From Nemertoderma westbladi (lineage: Eukaryota > Animalia > Xenacoelomorpha), in NCBI GenBank assembly GCA_032718475.1, contig JAUCBJ010005087.1:740-64739 (forward strand): DNA of 64,000 bases. Reading direction: 5' to 3'. Numbering within the stretch: position 1 is the stretch's first letter; each line of letters begins with the position of its first letter. Of this stretch, positions 1,722 through 51,374 are shown in pieces. A model generated the notes under the pieces. That model was not told the origin of the DNA, searched no databases, and saw nothing but the letters and a program-made list of their open reading frames with translations. A program made the translations under genes and the position numbers.

Positions 1722-1807
1722 TCTGAGAATTGCCTGAACTGTAACTGCCCGTCACAGTCTTAACACTAGGCCTGCCGAGCTGTGACTGACGGCTACCAAA
1801 GACGAAG

Positions 1808-3388: not shown

Positions 3389-3457
3389 AGATTAGTGGCG
3401 AGAGAGGGGGGGCAGAGAATGCCCCACAAGAGGGGTGTAGAAGTGTAGTAAGAGGTA

Positions 3458-4405
3458 GTGAAGTTAGAAGTAGCGGGTGGGGGGGGGGCTACGGGCACCC
3501 CACCGCGAGAGATTAGTAGCGAGAGAGGGGGGGCAGGGAGTGTCCCACAGGCGTCGGCGGATAATGCGCGGGCCGAGTTAGGTAAACCGCAACACCCGGC
3601 GATGGAGAGTAATAGGGGGATTGCGAGTATCCCCAGCGGCGTGCGATCGAGCAGAGAGAGACAGGTTGACGTCGCGAGAGGGCGGGCGACGGAACGTCGA
3701 GCCCAGTCAGAAGAGAGAAGATTAGTAGAGTTTAATAGAGAGGTCGAAGATAGAAGAAGATTAGTAGAGTTTAATAGAGGGGTCGAAGAGAGAAGAAAGG
3801 AAGATAATAGAAGAGTCGTTGCTAGGAGCAACCGGAGAGCGAGGACGGATAGCGAGCCGTCGATAGTAGAGATGGAGGTAGGGAGTCAGTGGGGTCGAAC
3901 TTCGGGAGATTGCCGTCGCCCCGGAGAAACGCACCGCACACCAAGAGAGGGGTACAGGATGTACCGATACGAAGAAGAGAACAGGAGTGGGGATCGAAGA
4001 GAAACTTCCCGACGTGATATAGCTGCCGATCGAGAGTACGGTAGTCGCGGGGAGATTCGAGATTCGAGAAGAATAAACTTCGATTCGGAAGGGCACATGC
4101 AGACTGCAGGACATACTGTAGGCCTTACTGCACATACTATTATAGGCCATGCTGGGAGAGATAGAGTAGGCGATAGGGTAGCGCGAACGACGGGATTAAA
4201 CCCGGAAGTCGCGGAGTACATACCGGTAGGTAGGCAAGAAGTGAATAGGCCTATATCGGTACCGGTACAGCAGCATGACTATAATTTCCAGGGACACAAC
4301 ATATATCCAGGGGAGGGGGGAATTATTGCAGATAGATGTATGGGCCCCAATATATTAACATCAACCCCAGTACCAAACATACCGGTGGGGGGGGGGACAG
4401 GGTGA
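3458..4405 (+). CDS. Element A ORF2: continuation of the disordered Gag N-terminal region
   Basis: 315-aa R/E/G-rich ORF with an internal repeat (RRLVEFNR x2). Bounded by G-homopolymer runs. Confidence 0.55.
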   Translation: MKLEVAGGGGATGTPPREISSERGGAGSVPQASADNARAELGKPQHPAMESNRGIASIPSGVRSSRERQVDVARGRATERRAQSEERRLVEFNREVEDRRRLVEFNRGVEERRKEDNRRVVARSNRRARTDSEPSIVEMEVGSQWGRTSGDCRRPGETHRTPREGYRMYRYEEENRSGDRRETSRRDIAADREYGSRGEIRDSRRINFDSEGHMQTAGHTVGLTAHTIIGHAGRDRVGDRVARTTGLNPEVAEYIPVGRQEVNRPISVPVQQHDYNFQGHNIYPGEGGIIADRCMGPNILTSTPVPNIPVGGGTG

Positions 4406-4463
4406 CATTCCCCCATCACAATATCAACAATATACCCCAATAGGAGCGAGAACATCGAACCCC

Positions 4464-6812
4464 TTGGACGAGAGCAGATCGTGCGACACGGAAATATGGA
4501 GGGGGCCGTTACCCCCAATGATATATCCGACGCAACAAATAAAGTCAACAACAAATAGGACGGACGGACCGTACCCAGCAGGAGAAACTATACAACATCC
4601 ATCGAACCCATTAGAAGCGCAAGCGATGGGAATGGCCACATTGATCGATGCGTTAAAAACTAGGATCGAGTTACCACCTGTGGAACCATTTAAATTCGAT
4701 GGGAGTAGGCCGGAAGAATATCTACAGTTTCGGCGCATGTATAGTAACGAAATATTAAGTAAGAACTTGACGCAGGCGGAGTGCCTAAAATATCTGCAAG
4801 TATATACAGGAGGCCCAGCATACGACATCGTGAGGCAATACCAGGGCATCGAGGGCGGCTTCACGACAGCATGGCGGGCGCTAGATAGGGAATACGGGCA
4901 CCCGGCCAAGATCATCCGGCAAACCCTGAGAGGCATAACATCGGATGGCCTACAGGACAATCCCGTTAGCATAAGGACCTTTGCAAACAAGGTCGAGAAG
5001 GCGTTAATCGTGTTAAAGACGCTAGACGCGCCATACGAACTCAACGCATCTAACAACATCACCACGATAGCGCAGGCACTGCCGGTCTGGTTACGAAGAA
5101 AGTGGAGGAAAATCGCTTTCTCCACACGGGAAAAGAAGGGTGCGGAACCGGGCCTGGAAGAAATGTCGAGCTTCCTCAACTATGAAGCCGAATTAATAAC
5201 AGACCCAGTCTATAGCGAGGATAGTTTGGGGACAAGCCATAAACCCGAACACGATCCTGCAGATCCACTCCCGAGAGTAGGACAATCACTACCACATGCA
5301 GCCACACAGGGGACTACCAGTCCACAGTTAGCTGGTAGTAGGGCCACACCGTGGTGGGGACAGAAAGAAAATAACACCATAAACAAACATAATCCCAATA
5401 TACCCAGTAGGCCGAGCACAGACAACCAAAACACTAAATCGGTACATATAAACCTACGCGCGATACGTGAAGGACTATACAGGGAACGCTATAATCCAGG
5501 ATTCGAATGTCAATTACACCGGGACGGAACCCATAAGACCAGGAGTTGTAAGCACTGGCAAGCGTTGCCCAAACAAGATCGTATAGCCTACACAGACGCA
5601 AACGGACTATGTCATCGATGTGTGGTAGAAGGACACAGATCCGGAGAGTGTAGAGAAACAGCAGTTAGAGAGTCCGAGACTGGAGGCCAGGCAATGGCCA
5701 CAAGCACTATAGAAGAGGAGAAGAAGAGAAAAGTACTACTCGGGGTAGTACCAGTAAAGATATCAGGAGAGGGCGGTCGATCAGTAACGACATTAATGCT
5801 GGTCGACAGCGGAGCAGCCTTCACGCTGGTGGAGAACTGGGTGGCCGAAGAGATAGGGCTAAAGACAAGGCCGAATAGAATGGCGGTGACTACCGTCTCG
5901 AGTAAAGATGAGGTCCTGGAGACGAGGGCGGGGCGGTGCAGGATAGCAGCGATTGCACCGGGATACGACTATGGGGCGACGATCGACCCCATCCACGTCA
6001 TAGAATCGATAAACATCAACGCCAGGCGACCAACCAACATTGAGGTCGAACAATATAGATTCCTGGACGGTATCGATTTCTCAATACCAAAGGTGGACGT
6101 CAGGAAGGTGTCCATTATAGTAGGGATGGACTGCCCGACGGCCCACGAGAGAACGAAGACGGTCTTCGGCGAAGACAGGCAGCGGGACCCGACGGCGATC
6201 CTCACGCCGTTCGGATGGATGCTTAGCGGCCCAGTTAAAACTAAGATCCCATGCAGTGTGACAGAGACATCAGGGTGCATGTTACCAGGCACCGCAGGCG
6301 CAGAGGACGAAGAGGAGAAACAGGAGATAGTAGATCCAGATAGGGAGGTGACAGTAAGAAAGTGGGCAGAGGAGAGTAGGTTTCCCAGCAAGCATCGGTA
6401 TGGAGATGGAGCGGAGCGGATGGCGAGGTGTCCGGAGGACAACACTCCGGGGGAGTGTCCAGAGGAGTGTCCGGAAGAGACGCAGGTCCGGTTTGGAGGC
6501 ATACCGACAAGGGGGAAGTCGAGAAGGAAGGCAGGATGGAAAGGGATAGGACTATTATTCTACCTTCTGTTTTTCCTGTTCTTTCACTTTCTATTCATTC
6601 TGCCGGCGGGAGACAACAAGGAGGGAGGTGGCATTTTGACGCCAGAGGGCGAGATAGTTAAGAAGGGGGCGGAGAGACCCGATTTCAGGGTGGCAGAAGA
6701 GGGAGAACCAATTCCTGGTGAGATGGAATTGGCGAAGAGAGTGCGGCGAATTCTACAGGACCTACAAGATCAGCAGTGGGAGAGTGCCTGTTGGAAGAAT
6801 CGCCCTAGTTAA
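4464..6812 (+). CDS. gag-pro: BEL/Pao Gag (capsid-like region + Cys/His knuckles) and aspartic protease, with a C-terminal hydrophobic segment
   Basis: Motifs PFKFDGSRPEEYLQF, CQLH..H..C and CHRCVVEGHRSGEC, protease LVDSGAAFTLV, and TPFGWMLSGP typical of the end of the BEL protease region. Then GIGLLFYLLFFLFFHFLFILPAG. Confidence 0.88.
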   Translation: MDESRSCDTEIWRGPLPPMIYPTQQIKSTTNRTDGPYPAGETIQHPSNPLEAQAMGMATLIDALKTRIELPPVEPFKFDGSRPEEYLQFRRMYSNEILSKNLTQAECLKYLQVYTGGPAYDIVRQYQGIEGGFTTAWRALDREYGHPAKIIRQTLRGITSDGLQDNPVSIRTFANKVEKALIVLKTLDAPYELNASNNITTIAQALPVWLRRKWRKIAFSTREKKGAEPGLEEMSSFLNYEAELITDPVYSEDSLGTSHKPEHDPADPLPRVGQSLPHAATQGTTSPQLAGSRATPWWGQKENNTINKHNPNIPSRPSTDNQNTKSVHINLRAIREGLYRERYNPGFECQLHRDGTHKTRSCKHWQALPKQDRIAYTDANGLCHRCVVEGHRSGECRETAVRESETGGQAMATSTIEEEKKRKVLLGVVPVKISGEGGRSVTTLMLVDSGAAFTLVENWVAEEIGLKTRPNRMAVTTVSSKDEVLETRAGRCRIAAIAPGYDYGATIDPIHVIESININARRPTNIEVEQYRFLDGIDFSIPKVDVRKVSIIVGMDCPTAHERTKTVFGEDRQRDPTAILTPFGWMLSGPVKTKIPCSVTETSGCMLPGTAGAEDEEEKQEIVDPDREVTVRKWAEESRFPSKHRYGDGAERMARCPEDNTPGECPEECPEETQVRFGGIPTRGKSRRKAGWKGIGLLFYLLFFLFFHFLFILPAGDNKEGGGILTPEGEIVKKGAERPDFRVAEEGEPIPGEMELAKRVRRILQDLQDQQWESACWKNRPS

Positions 6813-6944
6813 GAGGTTTAGTCGTCCAATATTTTGGACTGAGGGGGGTGGGAATGAGGGCGAGACGCCCTTCCCACAAGAAAATAATTATTTAATTAAA
6901 AAACAAATAATAAAAATAATTAAATAATAATTAGTAGAGGATAG

Positions 6945-7830
6945 TAAGAAGTAGCAGTTAGAAGTTAGGTAGAAGGAGAGTAGGTTAGAAGGCGGCGGGG
7001 TAAGGGAGTGTGGCATATTGTCATGCCACGAGTAGTAGTAGGGGGGTTGTGGGCACCGTAAGCGCCACGTAGAAGGTGAGTAAGTTAGAAGTCGGCGGGT
7101 AAGGGAGTGTGGCATATTGTCATGCCACGAGTAATAGTAGGGGGGTTGTGGGCACCGGAAGCGCCATGTAGAAAGTAGTAGTAGGGGGGTCGTGGGCACC
7201 GGAAGCGCCACGTAGAAAGTAGTAGTAGTGGAGTGGTTGTGGGCACCGTTAGCGCCACGTAGAAAGTAGTAGTAGTGGAGTGGTTGTGGGCACCGTTAGC
7301 GCCACGTAGAAAGTAGTAGTAGTGGAGTGGTTGTGGGCACCGTTAGCGCCACGTAGAAAGTAGTAAGAGAGGGGTTGTGGGCACCGGAAGCGCCACGTAG
7401 AAAGTAGTAGCAGGGAGTGGTTGTGGGCACCGCAAGCGCCACGTAGATAGAGGTATTAGTGGAGGTGGAGATGTAGATAGAGTAGAGTGGTAGAGACGGG
7501 CACATAGGGTGCCAGCTAGTAGAGTTAGAGATAGTAGAGAGTTAGTAGAGTTAGAAAGATAGTAGCAGAGTAGAAGCAGTAGTAGAGTGGTTGTGGGCAC
7601 CGTTAGCGCCACGTAGATGGAGGTAGAGTTAGTAAGAGGGTACGTAGTACCGGTTGTGGTTGTGGGCACCGTTAGCGCCACGTAGATGGAGGTAGAGTTA
7701 GTAAGAGGGTACGTAGTACCGGTTGTGGTTGTGGGCACCGTTAGCGCCACGTAGATGGAGATAGAGTTAGTAAGAGGGTACGTAGTACCGGTTGTGGTTG
7801 TGGGCACCGTTAGCGCCACGTAGATAGAGA
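6945..7830 (+). repeat. Tandem array in the 3' internal region of element A
   Basis: Core GGTTGTGGGCACCGTTAGCGCCACGTAGA recurs about a dozen times in ~45-bp and ~70-bp units. Strong purine skew continues to ~8200. Confidence 0.9.
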
Positions 7831-8416
7831 TAGAGTTAGTTGGAGGATTTTAGTCAGAGTTAGAAAAGAGTTAGTAGAGTTAGTAGTAGAGTTAGAGAGT
7901 TCTAGTTAGAGTTAGTAGAAAGTTAGATGCTTTTAGTTAGAGCTAAAAGTAGTAAGAGTTAGCAGAGAGCAGAGTTAGTAGTTAGTAGAGTTAGATAGTT
8001 AGTGTTAGTAAGTTAGATAAGGTAGATAGTATGATAGCACAGGGGTAGCATTGGAGATTAGGGCCTTAGGGAGTGGCAGAGAGTAGAGAGGAGATAGTGA
8101 GAAGAGCTGTTGGCGAGAAGTTAGAGTGCGATTCAGGTGTGGGGAGAGTGTAAGAGTGGGGAGAGAGCGAGTTGAGTTAGAGAGCGAGGGTTGGAGTGGC
8201 GAGAGTGTTGGGGAAACAAAAATTGTGTGAGAGAAGCGCACGATCGGCCCGACACGAGACGCCAGAGGGTAGTGACATCATACCCATAGGGAGCGGCCCG
8301 GAAAGCCGGCTCCGAAAAGAAAATAACTCCACCCCACACCCGATACTAGATCGGGATCCAGCGGGATTGTAACGCACTTTTTGGTTGATGCTATCTTCTT
8401 ACCGGGAAGATAGCAT

Positions 8417-8425
8417 GGGGGGGAG
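8417..8425 (+). promoter_or_regulatory. Polypurine tract of element A
   Basis: GGGGGGGAG directly before the TG of the 3' LTR, preceded by an 11-bp stem hairpin (8388-8416). Confidence 0.85.
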
Positions 8426-8976
8426 TGTTAGCTTATTCAATCCCGCCAACACCCCATAAAGTTATTAGCCGATAAGCAATATTGGGAGCCACGAGATTGG
8501 GCAATTAACCAACTCGTGCCATCCCAATAAGAGTGGGAAGGAGGCACACAATAGAAGGTCAGGGGCCAAACCCCTAACCCAAGGAGAACAGGTGGAGTGA
8601 ACGGGAATACTCCACGGGGCGCCAACAAGGGTATTAACCAATCAGAGGGGGGAATGGCATCGATTGAGTAGCAATAAGGCCACCGTGCAATATAACCAGT
8701 AACCTGTAATCATATCATTCAGTTTACTCAGTCAGCTATCCCAGTACAGTAAGGCAGTACGGTGACTGTTAAGACCGTCGTCGCCACCGTCACCATATTA
8801 CCGGTACATTAGCTTTATCTACTGTGCTATCTGTATCACTCATCATTTATTATCTCAACGTTATCAGAGTTCGACAACGACACTAGAACAATTATTACCT
8901 TTTCCATTCACACGGCGGGGCGGGGACGCGTACGAAACACACCGGATAAACCGGGATCCTCTCGGATCCCGTCACA
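8426..8976 (+). repeat. 3' LTR of element A
   Basis: Copy of 1162-1712 followed by TSD TCATC. Confidence 0.95.
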
Positions 8977-18575: not shown

Positions 18576-18642
18576 ATGCTACACTAATGCTAAGCTAGTG
18601 CTAATGCTAAGCTAACGGTAAGTGTTAACGTTGTATTGTTGG

Positions 18643-32990: not shown

Positions 32991-33654
32991 CTACTACTAC
33001 TAGGATCGGCATGCTGCATTGCAGCTGCATTTTTAAGAATGCTGTGCCGGCTTATCGACAAAATTGCACCGCCATAACTCCCTATCACCCATGACATTTA
33101 CTAGATCATCCGCATCTTCAAGGCCAGTGTCCTTTAAGATGCGTCTCAAAAAAGTCATGGGCTGTCCACCATGCTTATTCACTCCATGAGGCTGCCAAAG
33201 TACAAGATTATGCACTGGTTGGTCCTCACGGCGAAAGCAATGTCCTGCAAAGCGGAGGCGATTTTGTTCTAGTGTCAAGCTTGGGGGAACCAGTGAGACA
33301 CCTCCAATGTTATATAGTGTCTGGTTGGAGATGTGTGCATTGTACTTGACACAATGAACCCGGCGTAGCATTCTAGTGAATGTGCCATCCAGAGATTTGG
33401 TGTCCTCAGCAGTTAGAGCCCAGCATGGACTCCCATAGAGGAGTACTGGAACTACTGTTGCTCTAAATAATCGGACCTTAATTTTCCGATTAATTCTCGG
33501 TGACTTCCAAATCCTGGAAAGCCTATTCAAGGCTGCCCATGCCTTTCCCTTACGTATTCGAAGGTCTTCACCTGACTTCCGGATCCATGATCCCAGGTAA
33601 CAGAAGTCATCCACATGCTCAAGCATTCCATCTTTTGAGCTTATGCTTATCCGT
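32991..33654 (-). mobile_element. 3' part of RTE-clade LINE (C-terminal ORF, short 3' UTR, (TAG)n tail)
   Basis: VDDFCYLGS, KVRLFRATVVPVLLYG and RLRFAGHC motifs. Tail TAGTAGTAG. 12-bp TSD ATATTTGTATCA at 32979-32990 and 51375-51386. Confidence 0.9.
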
Positions 33655-34853
33655 TGTTCGCGCTTTTAGACCTTTAGCAGTTTAACCTGCCAAATTTAGG
33701 TATCTTCTAGGTTATAAATCGACTTTAGCCTATGACAAGTATTTGATACACTACATTAGACGAAGCCAGCCTATGCGCGACCATTCGCCCGCTGGATTTA
33801 CCCGGGAGACTGGATTCGGAAGCTCTGACCTTATTGCGGTGTAGGCCTACTGTATTATTCGATTGATTGTTAATATATAATCTCTGACAAATATTATTCA
33901 CTTTCGGGAAATATCAACAGTTCCTTTAGGACGTGGCGCTCTAAGTATATAAACAGAGTTATGACTTACACTAAACACAACAGGATGGCTATTGATTCAC
34001 GTATAAAGCGCATTCTTTAGGAGATGCTTTGTTATCTATCAAACTCATGAAAACTACCGCACAATGCTGCACACCAATCTCCCGACCTTCACTAATTTTA
34101 GTCACATATAAAGAGAACAGCAACCGACACATGTAGGGCCTATGAAATCGCATTAGATTCACTCCAAAACCACTATAATGTAAGTCGCAATTGCTATATG
34201 TAACCGGTCTCTCACCTTCAGTATATCAAGAAGATTGGGGTTTTATGATTATTTATCGATATTCTCCAAATATAACAATATTCCATCAAATAAACCATAA
34301 TAACCGACAGTAAATAGCAGTAAAATAATGCGGTGAAAGGTACATTCTGGCATTTGAGTCTGACCAGTTCGGTTTGTGATGTGCTATGCGTTATGATATG
34401 GTTTGATAACAGTTATACGTTTCTATGATCAAAGCCGTTCTAATGTTTGGCTAAAGTCTGAAACACAGAATAATTCCACAGCCGATGTTCTGGTATCAGG
34501 AAAAAAGGTAAACAAAGACCATAATGCATTGCGCGATTTCCCGGAGGCTTCTGTACAAATAAAATGAAAATCGCTCTGATTGGTCGACAGAACAAAGAAC
34601 AAAGAAAAAGTTACACGTGGACATATCAGCTGACAGATGTCGTCATCTGAACTTACACTGTATCAAGAGTATTTTGGCGTATTGCGACATAAAATCGCTA
34701 GTTATGTCCGCTAAAGTACACATACCGAAGAAATGGCTTTTTATGTCCACTAAAACACCGGTACAGTAAGGAAACGGCTTTTTATGTCCGCTAAAACACC
34801 TACAGAGTACTTTGCGGGGAAAATGACTAGCTAATTCCGCAAAAGCCTTTACA
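33655..34853 (-). repeat. 3' LTR of element B
   Basis: TG...CA ends. PPT adjacent at 34854-34861. Confidence 0.95.
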
Positions 34854-34930
34854 CCGCTCCCAGAAAATGGGATTTAATTCTATAAAATATAAAAAATCAC
34901 AGTTTCTAAAATATAAAATAGTCTAAACAG

Positions 34931-36643
34931 TTAGTCTTTCTTGCGCGGACGGCGTTTACGCAGTTTTTTGAGGCTAGCAAGAGTCCTTTTCTCTTTGGGG
35001 CGAGCCACTTTACTAGGAGGGCTATAACTCCTGGGTGAAGGGTGCAATACAATTGCATCAGAAGGTTTAGGGTTACAGTCAGTGTGTCCGCCGGTCGAGG
35101 TACCCGGTTGATCGGTATCAACCTCAGTGGAACGAGGTCGAACAACCTTGAGAGCGCATTTTAAGACAGCAGCTCTTACTGGTCCCTGACGGGTCGTTTG
35201 CACGAAAGCGGTAAGTGGACCGTGTGTAGTGAGAATTTCCTCGATTTGATGATTCTTTTCAACTCGCGTTCTCTAGCTCTATAGGAATCGATATGCTTCT
35301 CCTCGAGCTGATTTTCCTCCGCTTGTTGTTGGAAGCATTCGTCTAAAACGCTTTTAGAGTAGAGTCGTCCAAGTTCGATATCTTCTTAGAGATTCTGGAT
35401 TTCCTGATCGAACTGAGATAAAGCTAATTCGTTTACCGCTTGGACTTGCTGCTGCAATTTACGTTTCTCTAAACAATTGTAGGTTCCTTTTCCGATCTTT
35501 TGACGAGTAGTGTCCAACGCGTTTCGTACAACTCTCTCCTCCTCCTCGGTGACAGGTTGTATCGGGTTAAACCGGGACGATGATACGATTGAATGACGAT
35601 ATTAGGTGTCCGCGTCCCAATCTGGCTAGGGAAGATGGGCGAATATCTAGGGAGTCCACAACCGGAGTGCCACTGACTAACTTTTCGGGTGACACTAGAT
35701 CTTTGAACAGTGAGTACAGTTCGGGAGGATCCGTGATTCTATTAGGATCAAGAGTCTGAGGTCTCACTAGGAAGTGAGGAGGTCTGACCGAGTATTCCGG
35801 AACTCTGATCATAGGTTTATTTAAGGATCGTTTGAATCGAATGAGCGTAGGTGATACATCGAACAAATTTCGCTCGAAACTCCCGTAAATATAGCGAGTA
35901 AAACCGTGTTTAAAGCAACGTCTCCGCGGATGTTTATGTCTTTCCGTTTGCTGATTGGGTCTAGGGCATTCGTCGCAGTAATACCAAAGACGCACGTCCT
36001 GCAGGGGAAACGCGGGTGATCGTTCTCCAGTTTTACAATATTCCTCCATCTGTTCGAAGCTATCTGGGATGACAGGTAGTGGTCGATCGGCGGTAAGATA
36101 CATCATAGTGAAATAGAGCCGTTTGAGTTCTATCATAGGGTCATGATGTATACCTTGAGGATATCGAGTTTCTAGATTTTGTTGACTGGCAATATTGAGA
36201 TATGTTTCTCTCAGGAATTCCAGATAATCGTTGAAGTTACCGCGTTTATCCGGTTCTTTAACGTCTTCTCTTTCGAGTCGATTTCGAATAGAATTTTCGC
36301 ATTCGATTTTAAGTTTATCGTTCCGACTCCGCTGGGTAGGATATTTAAATAGTACCATTTCCCTTTCGGTGTCGACATAGTCCGTATCGTGTAAATCGAT
36401 AGGATGGCCAGTAGTTAAGAAGTCCATATACGTACCATTACGATGCGTATAGCGAGCGGTGAATTTTCTATAGTCCAATTCACGCGTAAGTTGCTACTGG
36501 GACATCGGCGGTTCGATATAATGACCATCGTCCTCCGTAGTAGTTGGACTAGCGTCGCCGCGTATCAAGCTATCAACAAACGCTTGTAAAGGTAGAGTAT
36601 ATCGCTCCCTGATACCAAGATCATCTTCTATCAACTCAGTCAT
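34931..36643 (-). pseudogene. Extra ORF of element B (unknown protein; Cys/His motif, coiled-coil-like region, basic tail), disrupted
   Basis: ATG at 36643 is in frame with the 303-aa ORF 35567-36478 across a single TAG (36494-36496). The frameshifted continuation is E/Q-rich and a final frame ends KKLRKRRPRKKD. Confidence 0.6.
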
Positions 36644-38341: not shown

Positions 38342-40468
38342 TTACGTTGGGGAGTCCCTAGATGTTTGTTGGATTAGGGAGGTGGTCGTGGGAAGAGTAT
38401 CTTGCCTTCCATAGTTTCCGGAGAGTTCTCTGTCTCTTTCCAGTAAACATAAACGACCAACTGGGCGATTGAGCTGCTGTGTCTCGAAGACAATTCCCGG
38501 TTTCTTAAAGTTACGTCGCATGACGACGAGTTCTACCGATCGCACCAAACCATCATCCGAGATATGAGTCTCGATGATACGACCTGTCTGCCACCGCTTA
38601 CGTGGAAGATCTGAATCCACAATAAGGATCATGTCTCCAGCGCTGACGTTTTCTTGCTGCGCAAACCACTTAGTTCGAAGTTGTAGCGTGGGCAGATAAT
38701 GTTTTTCGAAATGGTCAGCGAAACGACGGGATAACAACTGCATAAGTTGCCAAGTTTGCCGGCAGTATTCGTCTCCGTCCGTGATTTCCGATCGTGGGAG
38801 CATGGCTACAGGTTTCTTCAGTAGGAAGTGCGCGGGTGTTAGCGCTTCCATGGAATCGGGACTCGATGAGACTGGCATAAGCGGTCTCTTGTTGAGATAG
38901 GCGGCGATTTCCTCCATTAACGTCCGCAAAAGTTCGTCGGTGAGATACGCGCGGCACGGCACTATAAAGTGAAATGCGGTCTTCACGCTCCTGATTAATC
39001 TCTCCCAACTTCCTCCCCACCAAGGGGCGTCGGCGGCATTGAAGGTCCAGCTAGACGCTGTTACCCTTAGCTGATCGTCCACCTGTCTTTGGTTCCAATC
39101 TTTGACGTAAGCTTTGATTTCATTGTTGGCACCAATGAAGTTCGTTCCCTTATCAGATCTCATCGTGTTACTAGTTCCAAAGCGAGCGATCTGTCGGCGT
39201 AAGCTCAATAGGAAGCTGTTGGTAGATAAATCGTTCACCACATCGAGATGGATAGCTCTACAAGTCATACAAACAAAGATGACGCACCATCTCTTGACTA
39301 TAGTCCTAGCACGATATACTTCAATAGGGCCAAATAAATCTACACCGGTATTAGTAAAGGGTGGTTCATAGAGGCTTACTCGTTCCCTAGGTAATTCTGC
39401 CTCTCGCTGTGTTAAAGGCCTACTGAATGCTTTCCTACAGGGTATGCAGTTCCTAAGAACTTGGTTCAGAGCTCTACGGGGTTTATAAAAATAATAGCGA
39501 GTTCGAATTTCGCTAAGAACTCGTTCTCTACCAGCATGATAAAGCTTACTGTGAACATCTACAATCATCTTGATTTGTATTTCAAGATTTCTAATGAGTA
39601 TGGGAAACTTAGTGTCAAAGGATAATGGAGCATTAGTTAGTCTTCCTCCAACACGTATTAACCCATCTATCATTGTGCTAGAGAAACGATCCCTTAAGCG
39701 CATCTGTGGATTTCTTAACAATAGGAAATACTTATCGGAATCCTCATAGCATTGCAGGAGTCTCAACATCTGCTTATTGGTTTCTTCATGCTCCTGGTAA
39801 CTGATCTTCTCCTTCAGAAACCTGTGGGATATCTGGTATTTGGGAAGATCTTTAACAACATGGACCTGCGCAGATGTCAGTGGAGCGGTATCACTAGTGG
39901 TCTTCGTCCTGGAGTAGTGATGATGAAAACATCGCTTTAAATATGTAACGGCCTTACAGAGCCGATTCCAGGAACTATAGTGATGTATCACTCTCTGCAG
40001 GAGAGGTGAGAGTCCTTGCGAGACGTCTGGTATTCCAGATTTCCAATCCCTCTCTCTGATTTCCACAACAGACTTATTTGTGGCTGTGGGTTTCGGATCC
40101 AAAGCGTCGTCTCCGGAAGTGTGTAGTACAGACAGATCTACCACGGGTTTAAATAACTTCGATTTACTCGCCCGAGTTTTAGGTTTGACTTTCTCCGCTC
40201 CCTTGGCCTGTCTAATCTCCGCCGTAGTAAGATGAGGAGGCCATTCATCCTCTTCTTTGCTTAGGAAGTCGGGTCCACCTAACCAGTCTGGAGTATCTAT
40301 CAGTTCTTGTGGAGTTGCTCCCCTTGAGGCGATGTCGGCTGGATTAATCGTTCCAGGGCAATGTCTCCATTGATCTATCTTCGTGCGACTAAGTATAATG
40401 GCTACTCTGTTGGTAACGAAGACGCTGAACTGACAGACTTCATTGGTTATATACTCCAACACGAGCAA
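38342..40468 (-). CDS. pol: Element B pol: RNase H C-terminus + integrase
   Basis: WRHCPGTINPADIASRG; HHCC zinc motif (H..LYH...CIPC); DDE motifs GVDLFGP / SDKGTNF / GGSWERLI; C-terminal DGLVRSV and RPVGRLCLLE. Confidence 0.93.
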   Translation of the reverse strand: MLVLEYITNEVCQFSVFVTNRVAIILSRTKIDQWRHCPGTINPADIASRGATPQELIDTPDWLGGPDFLSKEEDEWPPHLTTAEIRQAKGAEKVKPKTRASKSKLFKPVVDLSVLHTSGDDALDPKPTATNKSVVEIRERDWKSGIPDVSQGLSPLLQRVIHHYSSWNRLCKAVTYLKRCFHHHYSRTKTTSDTAPLTSAQVHVVKDLPKYQISHRFLKEKISYQEHEETNKQMLRLLQCYEDSDKYFLLLRNPQMRLRDRFSSTMIDGLIRVGGRLTNAPLSFDTKFPILIRNLEIQIKMIVDVHSKLYHAGRERVLSEIRTRYYFYKPRRALNQVLRNCIPCRKAFSRPLTQREAELPRERVSLYEPPFTNTGVDLFGPIEVYRARTIVKRWCVIFVCMTCRAIHLDVVNDLSTNSFLLSLRRQIARFGTSNTMRSDKGTNFIGANNEIKAYVKDWNQRQVDDQLRVTASSWTFNAADAPWWGGSWERLIRSVKTAFHFIVPCRAYLTDELLRTLMEEIAAYLNKRPLMPVSSSPDSMEALTPAHFLLKKPVAMLPRSEITDGDEYCRQTWQLMQLLSRRFADHFEKHYLPTLQLRTKWFAQQENVSAGDMILIVDSDLPRKRWQTGRIIETHISDDGLVRSVELVVMRRNFKKPGIVFETQQLNRPVGRLCLLERDRELSGNYGRQDTLPTTTSLIQQTSRDSPT

Positions 40469-40477
40469 AGCATCGGT

Positions 40478-42300
40478 TCAATAGACAGTTTTCTCCAGTG
40501 GATAGTCGATATGTTCTGTTACATTCCGGCCAATGGCTGTAGCGTATAGAGCAGCTTTTAACTCCGCTCGAGGAACTTTCAACTTGTTGTTTATCAATGC
40601 CTTAGAGGTAACCAAGGCGACTTTGATTCCATCCGGAGTTTCAACTCTCAGGTAGGCTACTATACCTATTCCCATATTGCTGGCGTCTCCAAACACATGG
40701 AGTTGATAGGAATACGTAAGGAGAACATGACCAAAATATGAACGGGAAATTATAAAGTTCTCGATGGCTGGTAGAGAATCTTCCCATTTCATCCACTTCT
40801 TTAATAGTTCTCCCTTAAGTGGATCGTCCCATGAGTGGTTTTCAAGCCACATTTGTTGTACTAAACTCCGAGCAATCAATATAACTGGGCTAATAAATCC
40901 CAATGGATCGAAATAAGTGCTCAGGATACTTAGACAAATCCGTTTAGTCCGAACTGGATTATCTCGCTGTTTTAGCTGGAAAAACAGGATATCTCTCTCT
41001 GTGTCCCATTTCAAACCCGTTTAGTCCGAACTGGATTATCTCGCTGTTTTAGCTGGAAAAACAGGATATCTCTCTCTGTGTCCCATTTCAAACCAAGTGT
41101 CTTGGTTTCTGGAAGATCGTCCTTGATTAGGTCTAGATCTTTAACTCCTCGATCTTCTACCGGGATCGATTCCAGAAACTCACGTGAGTTGCTGGTGAAT
41201 TTAGTTAATCGAAATCCACCTCTTTTCAAGCACTCTACCGTTCCTTTGGCGACATCAATGGCTTCTTCCACCAATGGGAGGGACTTTAAATTGTCGTCCA
41301 TGTATATATCCCGTGTGATGTTGTCTATAACCTCTTTAGAGAAGGCGTCCCGGTTGTCATCAGCAGTGGTGCGCACCACTGAGCAGGCGTTTGAAGGGCT
41401 TGAGATGATCCCAAAAGCCTGGATGGTCATCCAATACTCCACCGGTTTCTGGTTGAGGTCTCCTTCAGGCCACCACAGAAATCGTAGGCTGTCTCGATCC
41501 CTATCCAGCGCCTTGACTTGTAAGAACATGCCTTCTATATCGGAGGCGAAAGCGATTGAATATTGTCGTAATCTTAAGAGTATTCCCAACAAGGATTGGA
41601 GTAAGTTGGGTCCTGGTAACAACTCGGAATTAAGGGATTGGCCCATGTAGAGGGCGGAGCCTTCAAATACTACCCGGACTTCATGGGGTTTACCGGGTTT
41701 GGGAACGTAACGTAATGATGTGTTAGATAGTACGTTCTCTCAGTTATGGGTGTTTCTTCCGGTACTCGCTCCGCATATCCCTTGTCAATAAATTTCTTCA
41801 ACTGAGTCTTGTACATTTCTTTAGCTGAAGCATTTGCCGTAAGGCGTCGATATAGTTGTGCAATTCTTTTCTCCGCCAAGGGTCAGTTGTTTATAAATTT
41901 AGGTTTTCGCTTTCGAAATGGTAGACCGATTTCATATCTACCTTGATCTTTAAGAAAACGTGTAGTTGTCTCCTGAATCTGCTTGGCTCTTTCATCTTCT
42001 ACCAATAGGGCCTTATCGTAGGAATTGGGCTCTACAGCCTCTTGAGTAAAGAATCATACGGCGTGTTCATCGCGAGTCTTCGCGTTGTAGTGATCTATCA
42101 CTTCATTCAGTTCGTCGTTGTACGCTGATTGTTCTGCTGGATGAATGAGGTGACATAGGTTCACTTGGTTTTGCCAAGTATCGTTTTCTGTAAGGAGGTC
42201 GATGGTCTTCTCCTCGTTGAAGAGTTGGTGGATGTCGTCATTATCTGAGGATTATGGAGTTCCCTCAATTATGTCATCTACCTCACTGAACTCCTCTTCC
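40478..42300 (-). pseudogene. pol: Element B pol: reverse transcriptase + RNase H N-terminus (frameshifted)
   Basis: PGPNLLQSL, SDIEGMFLQV, FGIISSP, DIYMDD, FDPLGFISP and LHVFGDAS motifs. Broken by stops and a 77-bp tandem duplication (40940-41016 / 41017-41093). Confidence 0.92.
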
Positions 42301-42384: not shown

Positions 42385-42849
42385 CTAGTTCTTCCCGCAT
42401 AGGCTTGTAGTGGTTGCGGTTGAGCAGGCCGATTTCTCCAATGTCTCAAGCGCCTCATGCGCATTTTGGCCGATGAGTATTTGCACTCCAGGGTAGTCTG
42501 TGTTGAATCTAGGTATCTTAAGCTGCTGGGTGAAATCGTCCTCATCCCAGTTATAAGGTTCCACTTGGCTGGTAGCGAAGTTCTTTATCGCCACCATTTT
42601 TACTGACCTTATACTGTGTTCTCCTAGTTCATCCTGGGGGGTGGACAACGCGCCTACGTAGTAGTCTGTAGCTACTGTAGATTTCCAATCCTGCATAATT
42701 CCTGAAAGGTTCAACTTAGTTCGGAACTTGGGTTGTCCAACAAAGATGTCTTCGGCTAGTTCTTTGTCGATGAATGTTCCGGTGCTGCCGGAGTCAAGGA
42801 GGGCGTTCACTATATAGCTCCCTTTTAACCCGTGGACTCTCAACTGCAC
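42385..42849 (-). CDS. Element B aspartic protease
   Basis: NALLDSGSTGTFI and VQILIG motifs, with RTRVGWYFTGP in the adjacent frame. Confidence 0.85.
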   Translation of the reverse strand: MQLRVHGLKGSYIVNALLDSGSTGTFIDKELAEDIFVGQPKFRTKLNLSGIMQDWKSTVATDYYVGALSTPQDELGEHSIRSVKMVAIKNFATSQVEPYNWDEDDFTQQLKIPRFNTDYPGVQILIGQNAHEALETLEKSACSTATTTSLCGKN

Positions 42850-42917
42850 TACGGGAAATTCTCGGATCCCTACATTGGAAGTTGATGCTTTCCAAGATGG
42901 TTGTCAGTCAGGAGTAG

Positions 42918-45900
42918 TTAGAGGGGCTTACTGTCGGTGTCCTTTTCATACGTAAGTGCTCGATACACTGCGGTATTTATTAGGTAACAGGATTCGTTTT
43001 CGTCGGAGAATTCATCCGTATAGAATCCTTCCATCTCAGAACTTTGATCAGTGTCGTTCACATCACTGAATTGGACATGTAGTTCGGACTCACTTACCTG
43101 ACTCGGGCTGTTTCTTTCGAATTCAGTGTGCAACAAGAAATGATGTTTTGCGCCGCACTTAGCACACCTTGCGTCGGAGTAACAGGTTCGTCGTTGGTGT
43201 CCTCGTCTGAGGCAATTATAACACAACCGCTTATCCCACATGACTTCACATCTATCTTTTAATGATTTCCTCAGGAATTCATCACACGCACTTAAACGGT
43301 GGGGCCCGTCGCACAACACACATTTTGGTTTGATGTTACTTACCTTACTTTGGATAACGTTGTGCACACTCGTTCTTTCCTCGGGCTTTCTTCCATGAAT
43401 TCTCTTAGGAGACGTAGGAGGAGTTTTTCTTACCTGTTCTCTCCTGTCATTGGTTCGAGACTTGAATTTACTTACGTCCTTAGGCGCTTTGTTGTCATAG
43501 TAAGATCTTTCAGTGTCTTTCCCGCTGTCTTCCTCTTGAGAAGCCTGGCTTTCGCCGTCGTCTGTATAACACACTGGTATTACCTTTCTCCTAGAAACGG
43601 GTTTCTCACTTACCTTATTTTCCGGTGTCTTCTCTCTGGACTGCTTTAGGAGCGGTAATTTTACCTCTCCATCTAAGAATGACATGAAATCAGCCATGGT
43701 AGGATCTCTTCGTTGTTGTTCCATCATATATAACACTTTCTTGTCCCAGCGTGTACCTACTCCGCCCTTGGGCAAATTAGATGCTAAGGCTCCTACAACC
43801 ATAGAATTCTGGTATTCATGAGACTTACCTAACCAATCTAGTTGTCTACAGATCTCCTGAATCTCGTCGGAAAACTCTATAATCCTGCTGCTAAGAAACT
43901 TTCGGGGCGCCATTAATTTCGCATATAAATACCTAGCTATGTTAGTCCTATTACCATACCTGATGTTCAGTGTATCCCAAACTTGTCTTAATCCATCTGG
44001 ATGTCCAATAAACTTTAACGCCATTAACTTGGGAGATCCTTCCAAGCACTCGATGAGGAATCTAAGTCTCTCCGAATCTCTCTGTTAGATAGCACAGAGT
44101 TCTGTATGTTATCTTTATAATATTCATTAAAAGGTAACCATTTCATCTCATCTCCATTGAACTTGACGATCTCTCCCACCTTTACCGCTTGACGGGCTTC
44201 AGTTCTAGCCATTTGACGCATAAAACTTTCTTGGGCCATCGTATTATTTAATATCGAGTTATCGGTATATAAATTTCTCGGATTATTATCAGGTCTATAT
44301 GGAATATCATTGTCAACAGGTTTATAATTACCCTTAATAGGGTTTACTATAGGAGTTTCTACTTCACTAGCAGTATAGATGCGTGTAGGCTCCACACCTT
44401 GCGCATGAAATACTTCAGACCTAACAGGTTGACACATTGTTACCGGGGTTGGTGGTATACCCCTTTGGGTATTTACTAATTTATCGCGTTCCAACGCGAT
44501 ACTCTGCTGCACCTCTTGCAACTCTAACCTACTTTCCCTTACCGTGCCCTTGAACTGCTGAACAGTTCCTTCCATCTCCCGGACCTGCTGAGAGGAGCAC
44601 TTACGGTGTTCCCTCAGCTGCCCGAGCAGGAGACCCATCTCCCGTCGTCCCTCAGCTACCCACTCGACCGCCGAAGCGGGAGTCGCCAACATAGTAGCGG
44701 GCGAGCGAGAGACGACGGGCGATAAATTCTTGATATCTTGCTCGGCGTCCAGGACGGGTTCGGACTCGGGAACAGTCCTACTGGGCACAGTTAGTTTAGT
44801 ACTGTGCAAAGGGAATTTAGAGGTAGGTTCTGGGAGTACAGGTGTCTCTATCACCGAAGGGGTGGCTTCGAGAACAGGCCTAATTATTTCAGGCTCATCT
44901 ACTATAGTAGGGAGTCTTTCTATTTTAATAATTTGGTCTGTGGGTTCTGTACTACCTAAGTCTGTGCTAGCTAGTTGCCTTCTAACAGCTGGGGGCAAAT
45001 CAGGCAATTTCTGATGGTGAGGCATTCTTCTACGTCTGCTTAGACGAGATCTATTTCCTCCGTCTTCAGGATCGGTGGTATTGCCTTCATCAGATGATGT
45101 AAATCCCTGCCTTTTGGGAGTAGATCGACTCATCATCTGCATTTGACTGGCTGTTAACTGTTTATTTATGCAGTCTTGCTTCTCTTGAATATTTTCCAAC
45201 TCTAGTTGGGTGGTCTCCTCAGACGCTCTCCGTTCTGCTTCTGCCACTGCCATCTTTCTTTCCGCCTCTGCCGCTGCCGCTTTTCTTTCCGCTTCTGCCG
45301 CTGCCGCTTTTATTTCCGCTTCTGCCGCTGCCGCTTTTCTTTCCGCTTCTGCCGCTGCCGCTTTTCTTTCCGCTTCTGCCGCTGCTACTGCCGCTGCTGC
45401 TGTCTTTCTGTCTTCTATACGTCTTTTCTTTACTTGTTCTTCTTGGACCCTAGCGATGCGGAGGCGTTCATCGAATTTAGCTTGGTTCGCAGCTAACATT
45501 TCCGCATCTATCGCGTCCAACACAAACTTGGCTCCTTCACTATTACGACGAAGTCCAGCCAGCCTTCTCCTCAACTCTTCATCACCTAGAAATCGTTGAT
45601 AGTCTGACAGATAGATGTCAATATCGTCCCTCTCATGCGGTTTCTCTGCTGTCGCTTCACTTTCCACTTGGGAAAAGGTAGCGTCTGTTGATTTTCCATG
45701 GGTTGAGCGCTCAGCCAGCTGAGATTTCCACTGGGCCGTTCCTTGGACTTTAAGACTCACCCGTTGGAACCAAGTCTTTATGGCAACTTGCAACGACGTG
45801 TCTTGGCTTCTCTTCGAGGCTTCCTCAAAGACCGAAAGGATTAGTCTGATCCTTAAGATTCGTTCTCGAACTTGATAAAGCAGCTCTCCCTGCTCTTGAG

Positions 45901-46582
45901 GTCCTTGACGTTGTTGAAACAGGTGTTCCTCTAATCGCTCAAAAGAACTGAAGAATCCCTGTACATATCCTGCTGCCGACCTCTTCCACACAGCTGGATC
46001 TCGAGTATCCTTTACTACTCCCATCCTGTATAAATCCTCCCAGGCAGCTTCCGATAAGTTAAATGGGAGTCCGGGTCCGGGGAAGTTCCATTGCGACTCG
46101 ACAATAGACTTCAGTTCCTCTCTTGTGTATCCCGCATAACTATCCTTGGTCGATCGCTTACTTCTCGCCCAATCAATTTGGTGTTCCTCCACCGCAATCA
46201 ATACCCTAGTGAGTACGGCTGCAGGAAGGATGAGAAGGGGATCCGAATAAACCTCATCTGCCATCTTTGCTCCGCGCTCGGGTGTCAGCTCTACAGTATC
46301 CGAACTACTGGAGCTGTCGGGCCGCTGAGAAATAAGTTCTCGGCTCGAGGGTTGCTGCTGTTTAGCAGCTGCTTCTTGATCCTGCTTGACTTGAGCCCGA
46401 GTGCCTATGATAGACCTACGGTGTTGGACTAGCCTAGGGTCTGATACTACTACTGGAGGGATGATCTTTCTTACAGTAGGAGGTGAGTTGAACTTTGGTC
46501 TCACATGTTCCACACTCCTGTCTGGTTCACAGATGGTTGTATCTAGGAGACTGTCTGACAGGTTTTGCTTTGTGTCAGACAT
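42918..46582 (-). pseudogene. gag: Element B Gag (two frames: 44024-46582 and 42918-44045)
   Basis: Long N-terminus with (AAAEAERK)n helix repeats, then KFNGDEMKWLPF and three BEL-type knuckles CVLCDGPHRLSAC, CYNCLRRGHQRRTC, CAKCGAKHHFLLH. Confidence 0.9.
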
Positions 46583-46716
46583 GTTTGTTTGTGCAGTTGA
46601 ATGCCTACTGCTGTATTACAGTTAAAGCAAGTCTAATAATTCAGTATCAACTGTTAGCCTAGTAATTAATTACCGATATCGTTACTCAGTGTAACGTGAT
46701 ATATTTACAATATATT

Positions 46717-47095: not shown

Positions 47096-48601
47096 ATTAT
47101 TTTAGAATAATTGAATTTCTGAATTTTCAGGGTTACTTGGTTACTTTACTTTACTTTATTACCGTTATTTAAGCAGTAGTCCAACTGACATTAAGACCTA
47201 ATTGTTATATGACAGGCCTACTATTTTATAAATCGGTTTGAGTTGATTTATAATATATATACCCGTTTAATGGGTTTTGTTACAATATTTGAAATAAATG
47301 TTATTATTTCTGGGAAGGAGTCACTACACAGAAGCTGTACGCTCTCAGTGAAGTGCTACTTGTTGGACACTAAAACAAATAATTCTACTTTACTAAGTTA
47401 CTTATTACTACAAATTATGTACAATTGCGGGGTGAGATTACAATCTCTAAATAAACACAAAAATTACACTTACGAATTTTTTAGGGTAATTTTACAAGAA
47501 GTCTACAAACCAGCCTAACAAAGGGTTAGAATATCTGGTTATTACAAACGGACAGGATACTACGGTATTTGAAAATAATAAAGCAGTAGTAAATATACTG
47601 CGTTGTCCAGATAGGAAAAATACCACCGTCTGACGACTTATAGCCGTAACGCTATAAGTACTACGTTATGTATCACGGAGTGTTCCTACCTAGAAGTTAA
47701 TTACCGCGGCCTACCAGAGCCAACGTGCCTATTAACCACTTTACAACACAAATATACTGCCTACACACTAATTACCTTCGGAAAGCACTGTACACTAAAC
47801 CCTAAATTAGGTACAAGTACTTATACAACAAATAACCAGCAGTTAAAAATACTTGTACAGCTAAAAGAACCACGGTATCTGCCGGAGTGACTAGAGCATA
47901 AAATCACCAGTCTTTACCTACGCCAAACAGCCCTGATGTAGTACCGGGGTTAATTTAACTATAACGGTATGTATAACAAGCACAATTACTGTAGGAATAA
48001 ACTTGGGGGTATGTATGTTGCGAATAATCGCAAAAACTCTGAATAATAAATATTACGCTACCCGTACAGACTACACAAACAAAATACAGACCAAATGCTA
48101 GCAGACTACTATCAAGCCTAAATAAACTACAGTATATGCAGACTCCGAAATGGTTAGTTAGTATGCGTTCTAACCGAGTAGTACGACTTATTCTTTCGGG
48201 GGGATTTACCTTACAGCACTGGATGCACACCACGTTCCTAACTAGTACTTTATCGGACATACACTCTACACACACTGCAATCTCTTCAGACTTAACAACA
48301 GTCAGACAACAGTCCAGCCTACAAATTTCCTGTACAATCTGAGCAGGCTTACACGTCTTCTGTTCAATATTAACCTACAAATAAATAAAACTGAAAGAAA
48401 TAAGTAAACCATACAAAGGAATAAGGGGTGATCAATCCCTAATCCCCTAACAGCCTACAATATACAATATATCACAATCGAAATAATACTGGTGTACCTG
48501 TACTGCTGTAAGTACCGGTTCGGGTGGTTAGGTAGTTAGGCCTACTGGTTACCGGTTGACCGGTACTTTAGTCTTTATTGCCTACGTCACAATAAAGATC
48601 C

Positions 48602-48613
48602 TATAACTGTTAT
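48602..48613 (-). promoter_or_regulatory. Non-tRNA primer-binding-site position of element B (ATAACAGTTATA on minus strand)
   Basis: Abuts the 5' LTR end and has no TGG. Exact reverse complement of minus-strand TATAACTGTTAT at 49376-49365 in the LTR. Confidence 0.6.
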
Positions 48614-49812
48614 TGTTCGCGCTTTTAGACCTTTAGCAGTTTAACCTGCCAAATTTAGGTGTCTTCTAGGTTATAAATCGACTTTAGCCTATGACAAGAA
48701 TTTGATACACTACATTAGCCGAAGCCAGCCTATGCGCGACCATTCACCCACTGGATTTACCCGGGAGACTGGATTCGGAAGCTCTGACCTTATTGCGGTG
48801 TAGGCCTACTGTATTATTCGATTGATCGTTAATATATAATCTCTGACAAATATTATTCACTTTCGGGAAATATCAACAGTTCCTTTAGGACGTGGCGCTC
48901 TAAGTATATAAACAGAGTTATGACTTACACTAAACACAACAGGATGGCTATTGATTCACGTATAAAGCGCATTCTTTAGGAGATGCTTTGTTATCTATCA
49001 AACTCATGCACATTACCGCACAATGCTGCACACCGATCTGCCGACCTTCACTAATTTTAGTCACATATAAAGAGAACAGCAACCGACACATGTAGGGCCT
49101 ATGAAATAGCATTAGATTCACTCCAAAACCACTATAATGTAAGTCGCAATTGCTATATGTAACCGGTCTCTCACCTTCAGTATATCAAGAAGATTGGGGT
49201 TTTATGATTATTTATCGATATTCTCCAAATATAACAATATTCCATCAAATAAACCATAATAACCGACAGTAAATAGCAGTAAAATAATGCGGTGAAAGGT
49301 ACGTTCTGGCATTTGAGTCTGACCAGTTCGGTTTGTGATGTGCTATGCATTATGATATGGTTTGATAACAGTTATACGTTTCTATGATCAAAGCCGTTCT
49401 AATGTTTGGCTAAAGTCTGAAACACAGAATAATTCCACAGCCGATGTTCTGGCATCATGAAAAAAGGTAAACAAAGACCATAATGCATTGCGCGATTTCC
49501 CGGAGGCTTCTGTACAAATAAAATGAAAATCGCTCTGATTGGTCGACAGAACAAAGAACAAAGAAAAAGTTACACGTGGACATATCAGCTGATAGATGTC
49601 GTCATCTGAACTTACACTGTATCAAGAGTATTTTGGCGTATTGCGACATAAAATCGCTAGTTATGTCCGTTAAAGTACACATACAGAAGAAATGGCTTTT
49701 TATGTCCACTAAAACACCGGTACAGTAAGGAAACGGCTTTTTATGTACGCTAAAACACCTACAGAGTACTTTGCGGGGAAAATGACTAGCTAATTCCGCA
49801 AAAGCCTTTACA
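48614..49812 (-). repeat. 5' LTR of element B
   Basis: Copy of 33655-34853. Confidence 0.95.
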
Positions 49813-51374
49813 TCCGTTCAGAGACTTCCTGAGGACTTTCAAAGTTAATTGTCAAAATTTAGGTCTTTCTGGAGTTAATAAAACGACCAACACTAGAAGC
49901 AGCATGTTCTAATGAGCTGAGGAGCCGTTGGGCTCCCTCTAGTGATTCTGAGAGTACTCCTAAGCCATCAGCAAAGTCTAGATCAGTTAGGTACTTGGCA
50001 GGATTTCCTCGACTTCTGGAGCCAGTAGGTGGAGTTATCATCACCCCATCATCATTATGATGATCTAAGGACATGCGTAGAACATAGTCAACAACAATTA
50101 TGAACAAGAATGGTGCAAGTGTGTCTCCCTGGAGGACGCCCCATAACACTTCAAATGGTTCTGTGTCACCGTCAACAGTAGACACAAATGTTGTCGAACC
50201 ATCGTATACTGATCTGATTGCTGCAATAATTTCATCAGGAATCCCATATAATGAAAGTATGCTGAACGTGAACATACGTGAGTGAGAGACTGAATCAAAG
50301 GCCTTGAAGAAGTCAAAAAGATAACAGCCAGATGCCTGTCTTTATTTTTGATAACTCTTCAATTATCCTTCTAAGTGCCAAAATGGGCTCCATGGTCCCA
50401 CGACCTTTACGGAACCCATTCTGATTTCCACGGAGCAGTCTCTCAATGGGATCCCTGATGCGATTTAATAGAATTCTATTGTATAGCTTTGCAGCAATCG
50501 AGATCAATGAGATTCCCCGAAAAGAACCATAGAGTGTTAGGTTGCCCTTCTTGGGAACTGGCACCAACTTATTTGTTTTCATTTCTTGTGGGACTCTTGT
50601 TGTTCGGTACATGTCTACTACAGTATGATGGGATAGATGAGCTTTAAACACTCAGGTATTTTAAAGACCTCAGGGTGAACACCATCTAATCCACTGGCAC
50701 GATTGGTCTTAAAGCTCTTTGCAGCAGCCTTCACTTCTGCAAAGGAGATATCACCAATGGGAATATCTGGGAGTACAGACTCAGACACTTTTACTTCTAT
50801 AAAGTTATCAGCCCAATACCCTGTCATTATTGAGGAGCTTTTCAAAGTGGGCCTTCCAACCATTGAGGCGATCGGCTGGTGATTGGTGATTCAGCCTTAA
50901 CCTTGGTGGTTGGTTGGCTTTTTCGACCAGCAAGCAAGTTGATCGATCTCCATGCCTGGGGTGATTGCCTGCTGTTGTCAGCATCATTGATGGCATCAAC
51001 CTGTTGGTTTATTAGCTCCTGTAAATTAACAGAGTACTGCCTGTTCAGGGACCTAGATGCAGCCTTAACGGCATTCTTGGCCTCTGTAGTCTGTTTGAGT
51101 CGGGACTCTTTCTGCGCCTTGTAGAGGTCATTTCGGCACTTTTGAATTTTGTTGTCAGTCAAGGGGGCCCGTTTTCTGTTTCGAGGGTATACAGGAACTG
51201 TTTCTGCAGCTGCTAACTTAACTGCCTCTGTGAAGGCAGTATAGCCCTCACAGTGATCTGCCGCCCCAGAGGCAAGAACCTCATACCTGTTGCTCAGCTG
51301 TAGTGTGAAGCTGCATCTCACACTTGGCTGTTGCAACAGAGAGGACCAGTCATGCCGCGGCAAAGCAGATTTCG
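49813..51374 (-). mobile_element. 5' part of the 5'-truncated RTE LINE (RT domain)
   Basis: PVPKKGNL, RGISL, NQNGFRKGR, GVLQGDTLAPFLFIIVVD and DLDFADG motifs. Joins 33654 once element B is removed. Confidence 0.9.

Follow-up and report, generated by a model that had tools for sequence, protein, structure and literature searches.

A BEL/Pao retrotransposon of Nemertoderma westbladi carries a probable signature of self-priming from within its own LTR

What primes reverse transcription of a BEL/Pao retrotransposon whose primer-binding site (PBS) does not begin with TGG and is exactly complementary to a segment of its own LTR? The question is raised by element B, which occupies 16,158 bp (16.2 kb) of the minus strand, from 49812 to 33655, within a 64,000-nt stretch of repeat-rich eukaryotic DNA from Nemertoderma westbladi (the window). 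Its ends and putative priming signals are as follows.

49813..49817, minus strand: target site duplication (TSD), 5′ copy, ACGGA
48614..49812, minus strand: 5′ LTR, 1199 bp, TG...CA (end GCGAACA)
49365..49376, minus strand: LTR 12-mer (LTR nt 437-448), exact complement of the PBS, begins TATAA, candidate 3′ end of a self-primer
48602..48613, minus strand: PBS, 12 nt, ATAACAGTTATA, adjoins the 5′ LTR, no TGG start
48572..48598, minus strand: leader hairpin, 9 bp, AATAAA in its 3′ arm
34854..34861, minus strand: polypurine tract (PPT), short and imperfect, GGGAGCGG, adjoins the 3′ LTR
33655..34853, minus strand: 3′ LTR, 1199 bp, 98.3% identical to the 5′ LTR
34406..34417, minus strand: 3′ LTR copy of the 12-mer, unchanged
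33650..33654, minus strand: TSD, 3′ copy, ACGGA

A preliminary description of the locus had noted a 1199-bp LTR followed directly by a PBS with 12/12 complementarity to that LTR, no TGG next to the LTR, pairing that ends precisely at the LTR edge, a copy of the 12-mer conserved at 34406-34417, a 9-bp hairpin downstream of the PBS, and a PPT adjoining the LTR without a spacer. All of this was borne out: both LTRs measure 1199 bp, ATAACAGTTATA pairs over its whole length with LTR nt 437-448, B is without a tRNA-type PBS, and the hairpin is present at 48598-48572; the PPT is where it was placed, though short and imperfect. The LTR pair differs by 20 substitutions and zero indels over 1199 bp, and AATAAA and ATTAAA are absent from the 1199-bp LTR. 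Of four folds, three predict the leader hairpin with P 0.6-0.99 and one with P of about 0.02; its stem, which contains AATAAA, may mask a poly(A) signal right after the PBS. Farther downstream, the 2-kb leader carries 123-bp tandem repeats at 46731-47092. The host site of B is a LINE, of which Pfam recognizes an RVT_1 piece (49859-50341) and a DUF6451 piece (33033-33665), and the empty, uninterrupted insertion site is present in public contigs, giving loose ends at 49811. The interrupted LINE (33033-33665 and 49859-51423, minus strand) is itself high-copy.

The coding region was divided into the following pieces.

42921..46615, minus strand: gag in two frames, DUF1759 and triple Cys-His box
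42388..42903, minus strand: aspartic protease piece, LLDSGS
41014..41739, minus strand: reverse transcriptase (RT) piece, YMDD, 38-53% identity to BEL-type proteins
40481..41020, minus strand: RT end and RNase H region, Pao Peptidase_A17 (E 2.7e-35), stops at an in-frame stop
38345..40477, minus strand: RNase H end and integrase (H2C2, DUF5641), downstream of RT
35570..36493, minus strand: extra 308-aa open frame ahead of the 3′ LTR

Pfam identified DUF1759, aspartic protease (below the curated cut-off), Peptidase_A17, H2C2 and DUF5641, in the order gag-PR-RT-RH-IN. The identity range of the RT piece refers to relatives among the 120 matches listed, several of them from corals, a sea anemone and a bivalve, and the RT matches carry PF05380. 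B is therefore assigned to BEL/Pao by its domain set and order and by the identity of its YMDD RT to BEL-type relatives. Its TG...CA LTRs, TSD and PPT are structural features of Belpaoviridae; the tRNA-type PBS of that family is missing, yet membership holds because the family is defined by RT phylogeny. A Pfam search of B gave no chromodomain match. The third zinc knuckle is unlike that of Suzu and the protease motif resembles that of Sinbad, which is a lead only as to a named clade. Upstream of the capsid region, an 863-aa frame (44027-46615, minus strand) without a Pfam match contains a 9-aa tandem repeat of the AAAAEAERK type at 45217-45405. The 3.5 kb between integrase and 3′ LTR (34854-38340, minus strand) hold the 308-aa frame, for which neither Pfam nor Atlas gave a match, and shorter frames without a Pfam match. 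The element had been called an autonomous-type BEL element, and its gene set and BEL/Pao domains agree with this; the copy itself, however, is defective, with gag-pol spread over several frames, interrupted by an in-frame stop and carrying a tandem duplication of 83 bp. Judged from its reading frames, this copy of B is dead and cannot move by itself.

The complement of the PBS occurs in the window only in the two LTR copies (49376-49365 and 34417-34406). None of 5000 dinucleotide-shuffled LTRs reached a 12-nt match and 3/5000 reached 11 nt; a single one of 13,730 internal positions of B, the PBS itself, has a 12-nt match to the LTR; and when splice junctions and offsets were allowed in the null, 0/1500 pseudo-PBS positions equalled the match of B. 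ARAGORN found nothing over the whole window. The PBS site is a 5-1-5 quasi-palindrome. Direct duplication of this quasi-palindrome was considered as the source of the match and rejected: the inverted reading fits 12/12 and the direct one 10/11, and the central and outer bases of the 12-mer, as read from the sequence, agree with inversion and not with a direct copy.

A second element of the window, element A, was compared with B.

1162..8976, plus strand: element A, with no genes beyond a BEL-type gag and protease; TSD TCATC; LTRs of 551 bp that differ by one substitution
1503..1511, plus strand: LTR 9-mer of element A, complementary to its own PBS (1713-1721)

The match in element A is weaker, being reached by 8/1500 null positions, and its PBS also has no TGG start. 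Both A and B are of a contiguous type: the PBS matches an uninterrupted LTR segment, and no LTR splice junction betters either match. The strong donors in the LTR of B (nt 197, 638 and 884) give no junction match longer than 6 nt. The leader of element A holds a second copy of the LTR end plus PBS about 30 nt downstream. A further BEL fragment (19642-22703, plus strand) is decayed, with about 70% DNA identity to the RT/RNase H of B; no LTRs were found for it, so there is no PBS match to score. The window also contains two long elements built of imperfect inverted repeats, of foldback or MITE-like kind (57077-58321 and 60878-62609), with related ends at 18990-19202, and tandem arrays of 11-bp and 31-bp units at 17272-18700 and 31572-33000.

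Public DNA contigs gave a view of B's own family and delimited two parts of its LTR.

49364..49437, minus strand: block conserved in the family, ending one base past the 12-mer (contig depth and variants)
49283..49363, minus strand: spacer directly 3′ of the 12-mer, varying in length and sequence among family members (depth drop, joints, loose ends)

The family is high-copy and diverse, with 197 and 207 variable places per 1501 nt at ≥5% in two runs. The interval 49300-49440 has two variable places at ≥2%, 49357 and 49398 (three runs, two samples), and the 12-mer has zero variants at ≥2% in four DNA runs, the fourth of which (X5) comprised only 3 contigs. Depth in run X1 is 74,709 at 49365-69 and drops to 1,040 at 49350-54, with an accumulation of loose ends and joints at 49358-49365; hence family conservation stops one base past the 12-mer. 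The contrast between conserved and variable parts is suggestive rather than exact, because a short target favours clean matches and 40 of 355 rows were listed for the wider alignment. A pyrimidine-rich TCAG in the conserved block, about 40 nt upstream of the 12-mer, may be acceptor-like or initiator-like. Run X4, guessed to be RNA, has zero cover over 49318-49470, which has no bearing on expression.

RT alignment led to 96 relative loci, 80 from metagenomes and 16 from genome bins, apparently host DNA. Sixteen contigs filed in bacterial genome bins (L081-L096) have BEL/Pao RT matches and are probably animal host DNA binned as bacterial; scans of viral contigs yielded no relative. The 5′ LTR end was fixed by a direct repeat at 16 loci, which amount to about 11 families and not to 16 independent cases. 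A screen of relatives for LTR-PBS complementarity versus tRNA matches, suggested in the preliminary description, came out in favour of the former: no locus of the 16 is TGG-type (no TGG in the first 6 nt after the LTR), and 12/16 pair with a junction in their own LTR. The longest contiguous own-LTR match among the 16 is 9 nt; at the 12 loci, the PBS pairs over 10-15 nt (Watson-Crick) with the joint of a predicted GT-AG intron inside the LTR, and each of these matches is reached by 0-3 of 1500 pseudo-PBS positions. As for the misses, L047 has 10 pairs plus one G-U, L081 has one mismatch, and L095 has the site deleted in the scored 3′ LTR and intact in the 5′ LTR. The repeat-defined LTR end of L032 proved to be a tandem-duplication artefact with a wrong boundary; this locus, which reaches 11 nt in the blind scan, is still counted among the 16, as a miss.

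The blind scan covered 77/96 loci, 19 being left out for too little upstream DNA or no RT match. Junction matches of ≥11 nt were found at 23/77 loci versus 0/77 reverse-complement controls; one of the 23, at L041, is probably due to chance. The letters of the PBS are element-specific: 24 compared PBSs are all different, and non-cognate PBS/LTR pairs reach ≥11 nt in 6/552 cases, all within three pairs of near relatives (the cognate scores in this comparison were selected and hence are no test). Loss of complementarity in relatives without a compensatory change had been named beforehand as evidence against self-priming. In L085 and L087, which lie outside B's own family and have exon 2 in common, the exon-1 end and the PBS differ together (CAC/GTG versus TAA/TTA). 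Predicted donors of the relatives conform to GTRAG/GTAYGT, the distance from acceptor to LTR end is 52-223 nt in the junction-type elements, and a poly(A) signal lies downstream of the acceptor in 18/21 junction loci; a search upstream of the donors for an initiator or DPE at a constant distance found none. Three junction-type elements (L023:6688-7228, L040 and L045) have LTRs ending in TA instead of CA.

Contiguous own-LTR matches of 11-12 nt, the intron-less form seen in B, were found in L041, L058, L072 and L073, whose LTR ends were inferred from motifs; 2, 4, 0 and 5 of 1500 null positions, respectively, have such matches. A blind contiguous scan at ≥12 nt gave no excess over control (8 versus 9). 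The site lies 138-222 nt from the LTR end in these relatives. In L072 and L073 it is found 50 and 61 nt downstream of a TATA-like box and upstream of AATAAA, and the site is therefore probably within the transcript.

A 35-row RT tree places L041 as sister to the spliced L030 (support 98/92), and the start of exon 2 is common to both. The nearest RT row to B is the junction-type L082 (CAGTTG|TTAAT, 11 nt at offset 5), with support of 89/98, long branches and no outgroup. Contiguous and junction states need 4 changes on the tree, and a single clade of contiguous rows was rejected (AU p 2.4e-5). The tree is unrooted, its bootstrap was not settled, rows of unknown state were left out, the states of L033, L043, L051, L081 and L086 were assigned partly by eye, and the state groups were named only after a quick tree had been inspected. 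Within these bounds, repeated change between the two states is supported by the RT sequences. Loss of the intron, rather than gain, is suggested, as a spliced 3′ LTR, once reverse-transcribed, would directly yield the intron-less form; the tree does not settle the direction, since the position of B is weak (89/98, long branch, no root).

How, then, would B be primed? We consider it likely, from the sequence comparisons, that the family of B uses Tf1-like self-priming from an internal LTR segment. B itself is probably the intron-less form of a splice-built primer, the junction state being the commoner one among the relatives tested. Transcription would start upstream of 49376, and the LTR 12-mer would anneal to the PBS, either in cis, by fold-back, or in trans, as part of a different LTR transcript. 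A nuclease, by analogy with Tf1 probably the element's RNase H, would cut 3′ of the 12-mer, and from the 3′ end so created RT would synthesize DNA into the U5 end. In Tf1, RNase H cleavage of the RNA duplex frees the primer, and an RNase H region is present in B. Intron-less forms such as B would arise via reverse transcription of a spliced 3′ LTR. Fold-back priming like that of element A had been proposed for B at the outset. This idea is strengthened by the BEL/Pao identity of B, the missing tRNA-type PBS and the recurrence in relatives of self-complementary sites with different letters.

The priming scheme would require the 12-mer to be within the RNA. In relatives, the partner of the PBS is internal (a predicted splice junction, or a site 50-61 nt past a TATA-like box). 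Folding of the LTR plus leader RNA gave the PBS-LTR helix a P of about 1 from 49376, 0.4 from 49418 and 0.34 from 49460, and P = 0 when the RNA was assumed to start at 49620 or at the LTR start, 49812; as the result follows the assumed start, folding was not counted as independent evidence. In B, 751 nt separate the site from the LTR end, a loop far longer than those of both contiguous and spliced relatives.

Since the 12-mer begins with TATAA, TATAAC could be a TATA box, with a start about 30 nt downstream; the 5′ 12-mer would then lie outside the RNA, and pairing would involve the U3 copy at the RNA 3′ end, or not occur at all. We regard this as unlikely. Upstream of the 12-mer there is no further TATA-like box, and the conserved block upstream of it is like a proximal promoter; element A, moreover, has TATAACC about 30 nt ahead of a TCAGT initiator-like motif. 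The caveat stays in force, as a comparable TATAAC occupies a TATA-like position in element A. However, a TATA box leaves the conservation of GTTAT and the exact complementarity to the PBS unexplained, the start would sit in the length-variable spacer, TATAAC is a poor TBP site, and in relatives the partner is found at a splice junction or well past a TATA-like box.

It is quite improbable that the pairing is real but structural, serving dimer formation, packaging or end-to-end contact, with something else as the primer. The 5-1-5 quasi-palindrome could form a weak homodimer, with a computed energy of about -6 kcal/mol versus -11.4 kcal/mol for the cognate PBS/12-mer duplex; but most PBSs of the relatives are not palindromic (an arm of 5 is present in 2/24 elements), no other primer site is visible, and the partner is always 0-5 nt from the LTR edge with its 3′ end toward the edge, which is the geometry of a primer.

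Splicing might also build the primer of B itself, with the donor cut following LTR nt 443 and the AG at nt 1167 as acceptor. This junction scores 11 nt at offset 1, makes a smaller loop and would equal the state of most relatives, and family conservation stops at +6 of the would-be donor. The donor, GTTATC, is nevertheless unlike the GTRAG/GTAYGT of relatives, the acceptor is pyrimidine-poor, just 32 nt from the LTR end and not followed by a poly(A) signal, and the unspliced form pairs better, over 12 nt; a spliced primer in B is thus very unlikely. Equally hard to credit is a host RNA (a tRNA fragment or other small RNA) priming at the PBS, with the LTR copy a by-product or chance: belpaovirids are described by ICTV as primed by tRNA-Arg or tRNA-Gly (PMC8742986) and some copia lineages have half-tRNA primers that lack a CCA end (PMC6317226, in the part available), but the PBS of B has no TGG, Rfam gives no match over 47500-49900, the chance level is below 1 in 5000 and 24 different PBSs each match their own LTR.

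Self-priming from the LTR was set against what is described for the family. The ICTV profile of Belpaoviridae, which calls their replication poorly understood, describes a PBS of 18 nt for tRNA-Arg or tRNA-Gly, preceded by a non-coding stretch, and a genome of 4.2-10 kb (PMC8742986). B resembles Belpaoviridae/Semotivirus in its DUF1759 gag, triple Cys-His box, PR-RT-RH-IN order, Peptidase_A17, DUF5641 and short PPT, and its LTR falls within their range of 0.2-1.2 kb; it differs in the 12-nt self-complementary PBS at the LTR edge and in its length of 16.2 kb.

According to the accessible part of PMC4600332, Tf1/Tj1 and the Tf1/sushi group are reported to be self-primed; Tf1, Tf2, Tj1 and Tf1/sushi elements, which are Ty3/gypsy chromoviruses, share with B a PBS beside the 5′ LTR complementary to their own LTR RNA, with no tRNA site. 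Their RT and integrase are of the Ty3/gypsy chromovirus kind, whereas the domains of B are BEL-type; and the primer of Tf1/Tj1 is the 5′ segment of the mRNA, whereas the putative primer in B and its relatives appears to be internal and, in the majority of the relatives tested, spans a predicted splice junction. Self-priming is also predicted for Tcn1 (gypsy) and TAR/Houba/Osr-1 (copia) in the sections available of PMC6317226. These resemble B in that self-priming was inferred from sequence in otherwise tRNA-primed lineages, but they belong to other families, and the same sections do not mention a splice-built primer. The available portions of PMC6934838 and PMC3601003 name self-priming only for the Tf1/sushi, Tcn1 and TAR groups or chromoviruses. 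The term 'PBS' is absent from the main text (supplements aside) of the BEL surveys PMC3118150, PMC554778, PMC6238403 and PMC8556966, and the accessible text of PMC8220671 mentions it generically only. Our literature search found no BEL/Pao self-priming and no splice-built primer in the texts open to it; subscription papers, Repbase, GyDB and supplements may hold one. The self-priming signature, with a mechanism deduced from it, is thus probably new for a family described as tRNA-primed, self-priming itself being known elsewhere.

A broader scenario, which we offer tentatively as a possibility somewhat short of even, is that tRNA priming has been abandoned in a large marine branch of Belpaoviridae, whose primer is built by the host spliceosome through removal of an intron within the LTR, so that only the exon joint of the LTR pairs with the PBS. 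The primer would perhaps be a short, spliced and polyadenylated LTR RNA acting in trans, even from solo LTRs, and B and at least three other lineages would be processed intron-less descendants with the joint fixed in their DNA.

A self-complementary, non-tRNA PBS means that tRNA-based PBS finders would miss such elements. If self-priming is confirmed, it would be the third or fourth independent case among LTR elements. A splice-dependent primer would make retrotransposition depend on host RNA processing, a kind of control for which the literature searched gives no example, and the intron-less joint would free priming from splicing. Spliced and intron-less sister elements thereby offer natural pairs for RNA-sequencing tests.
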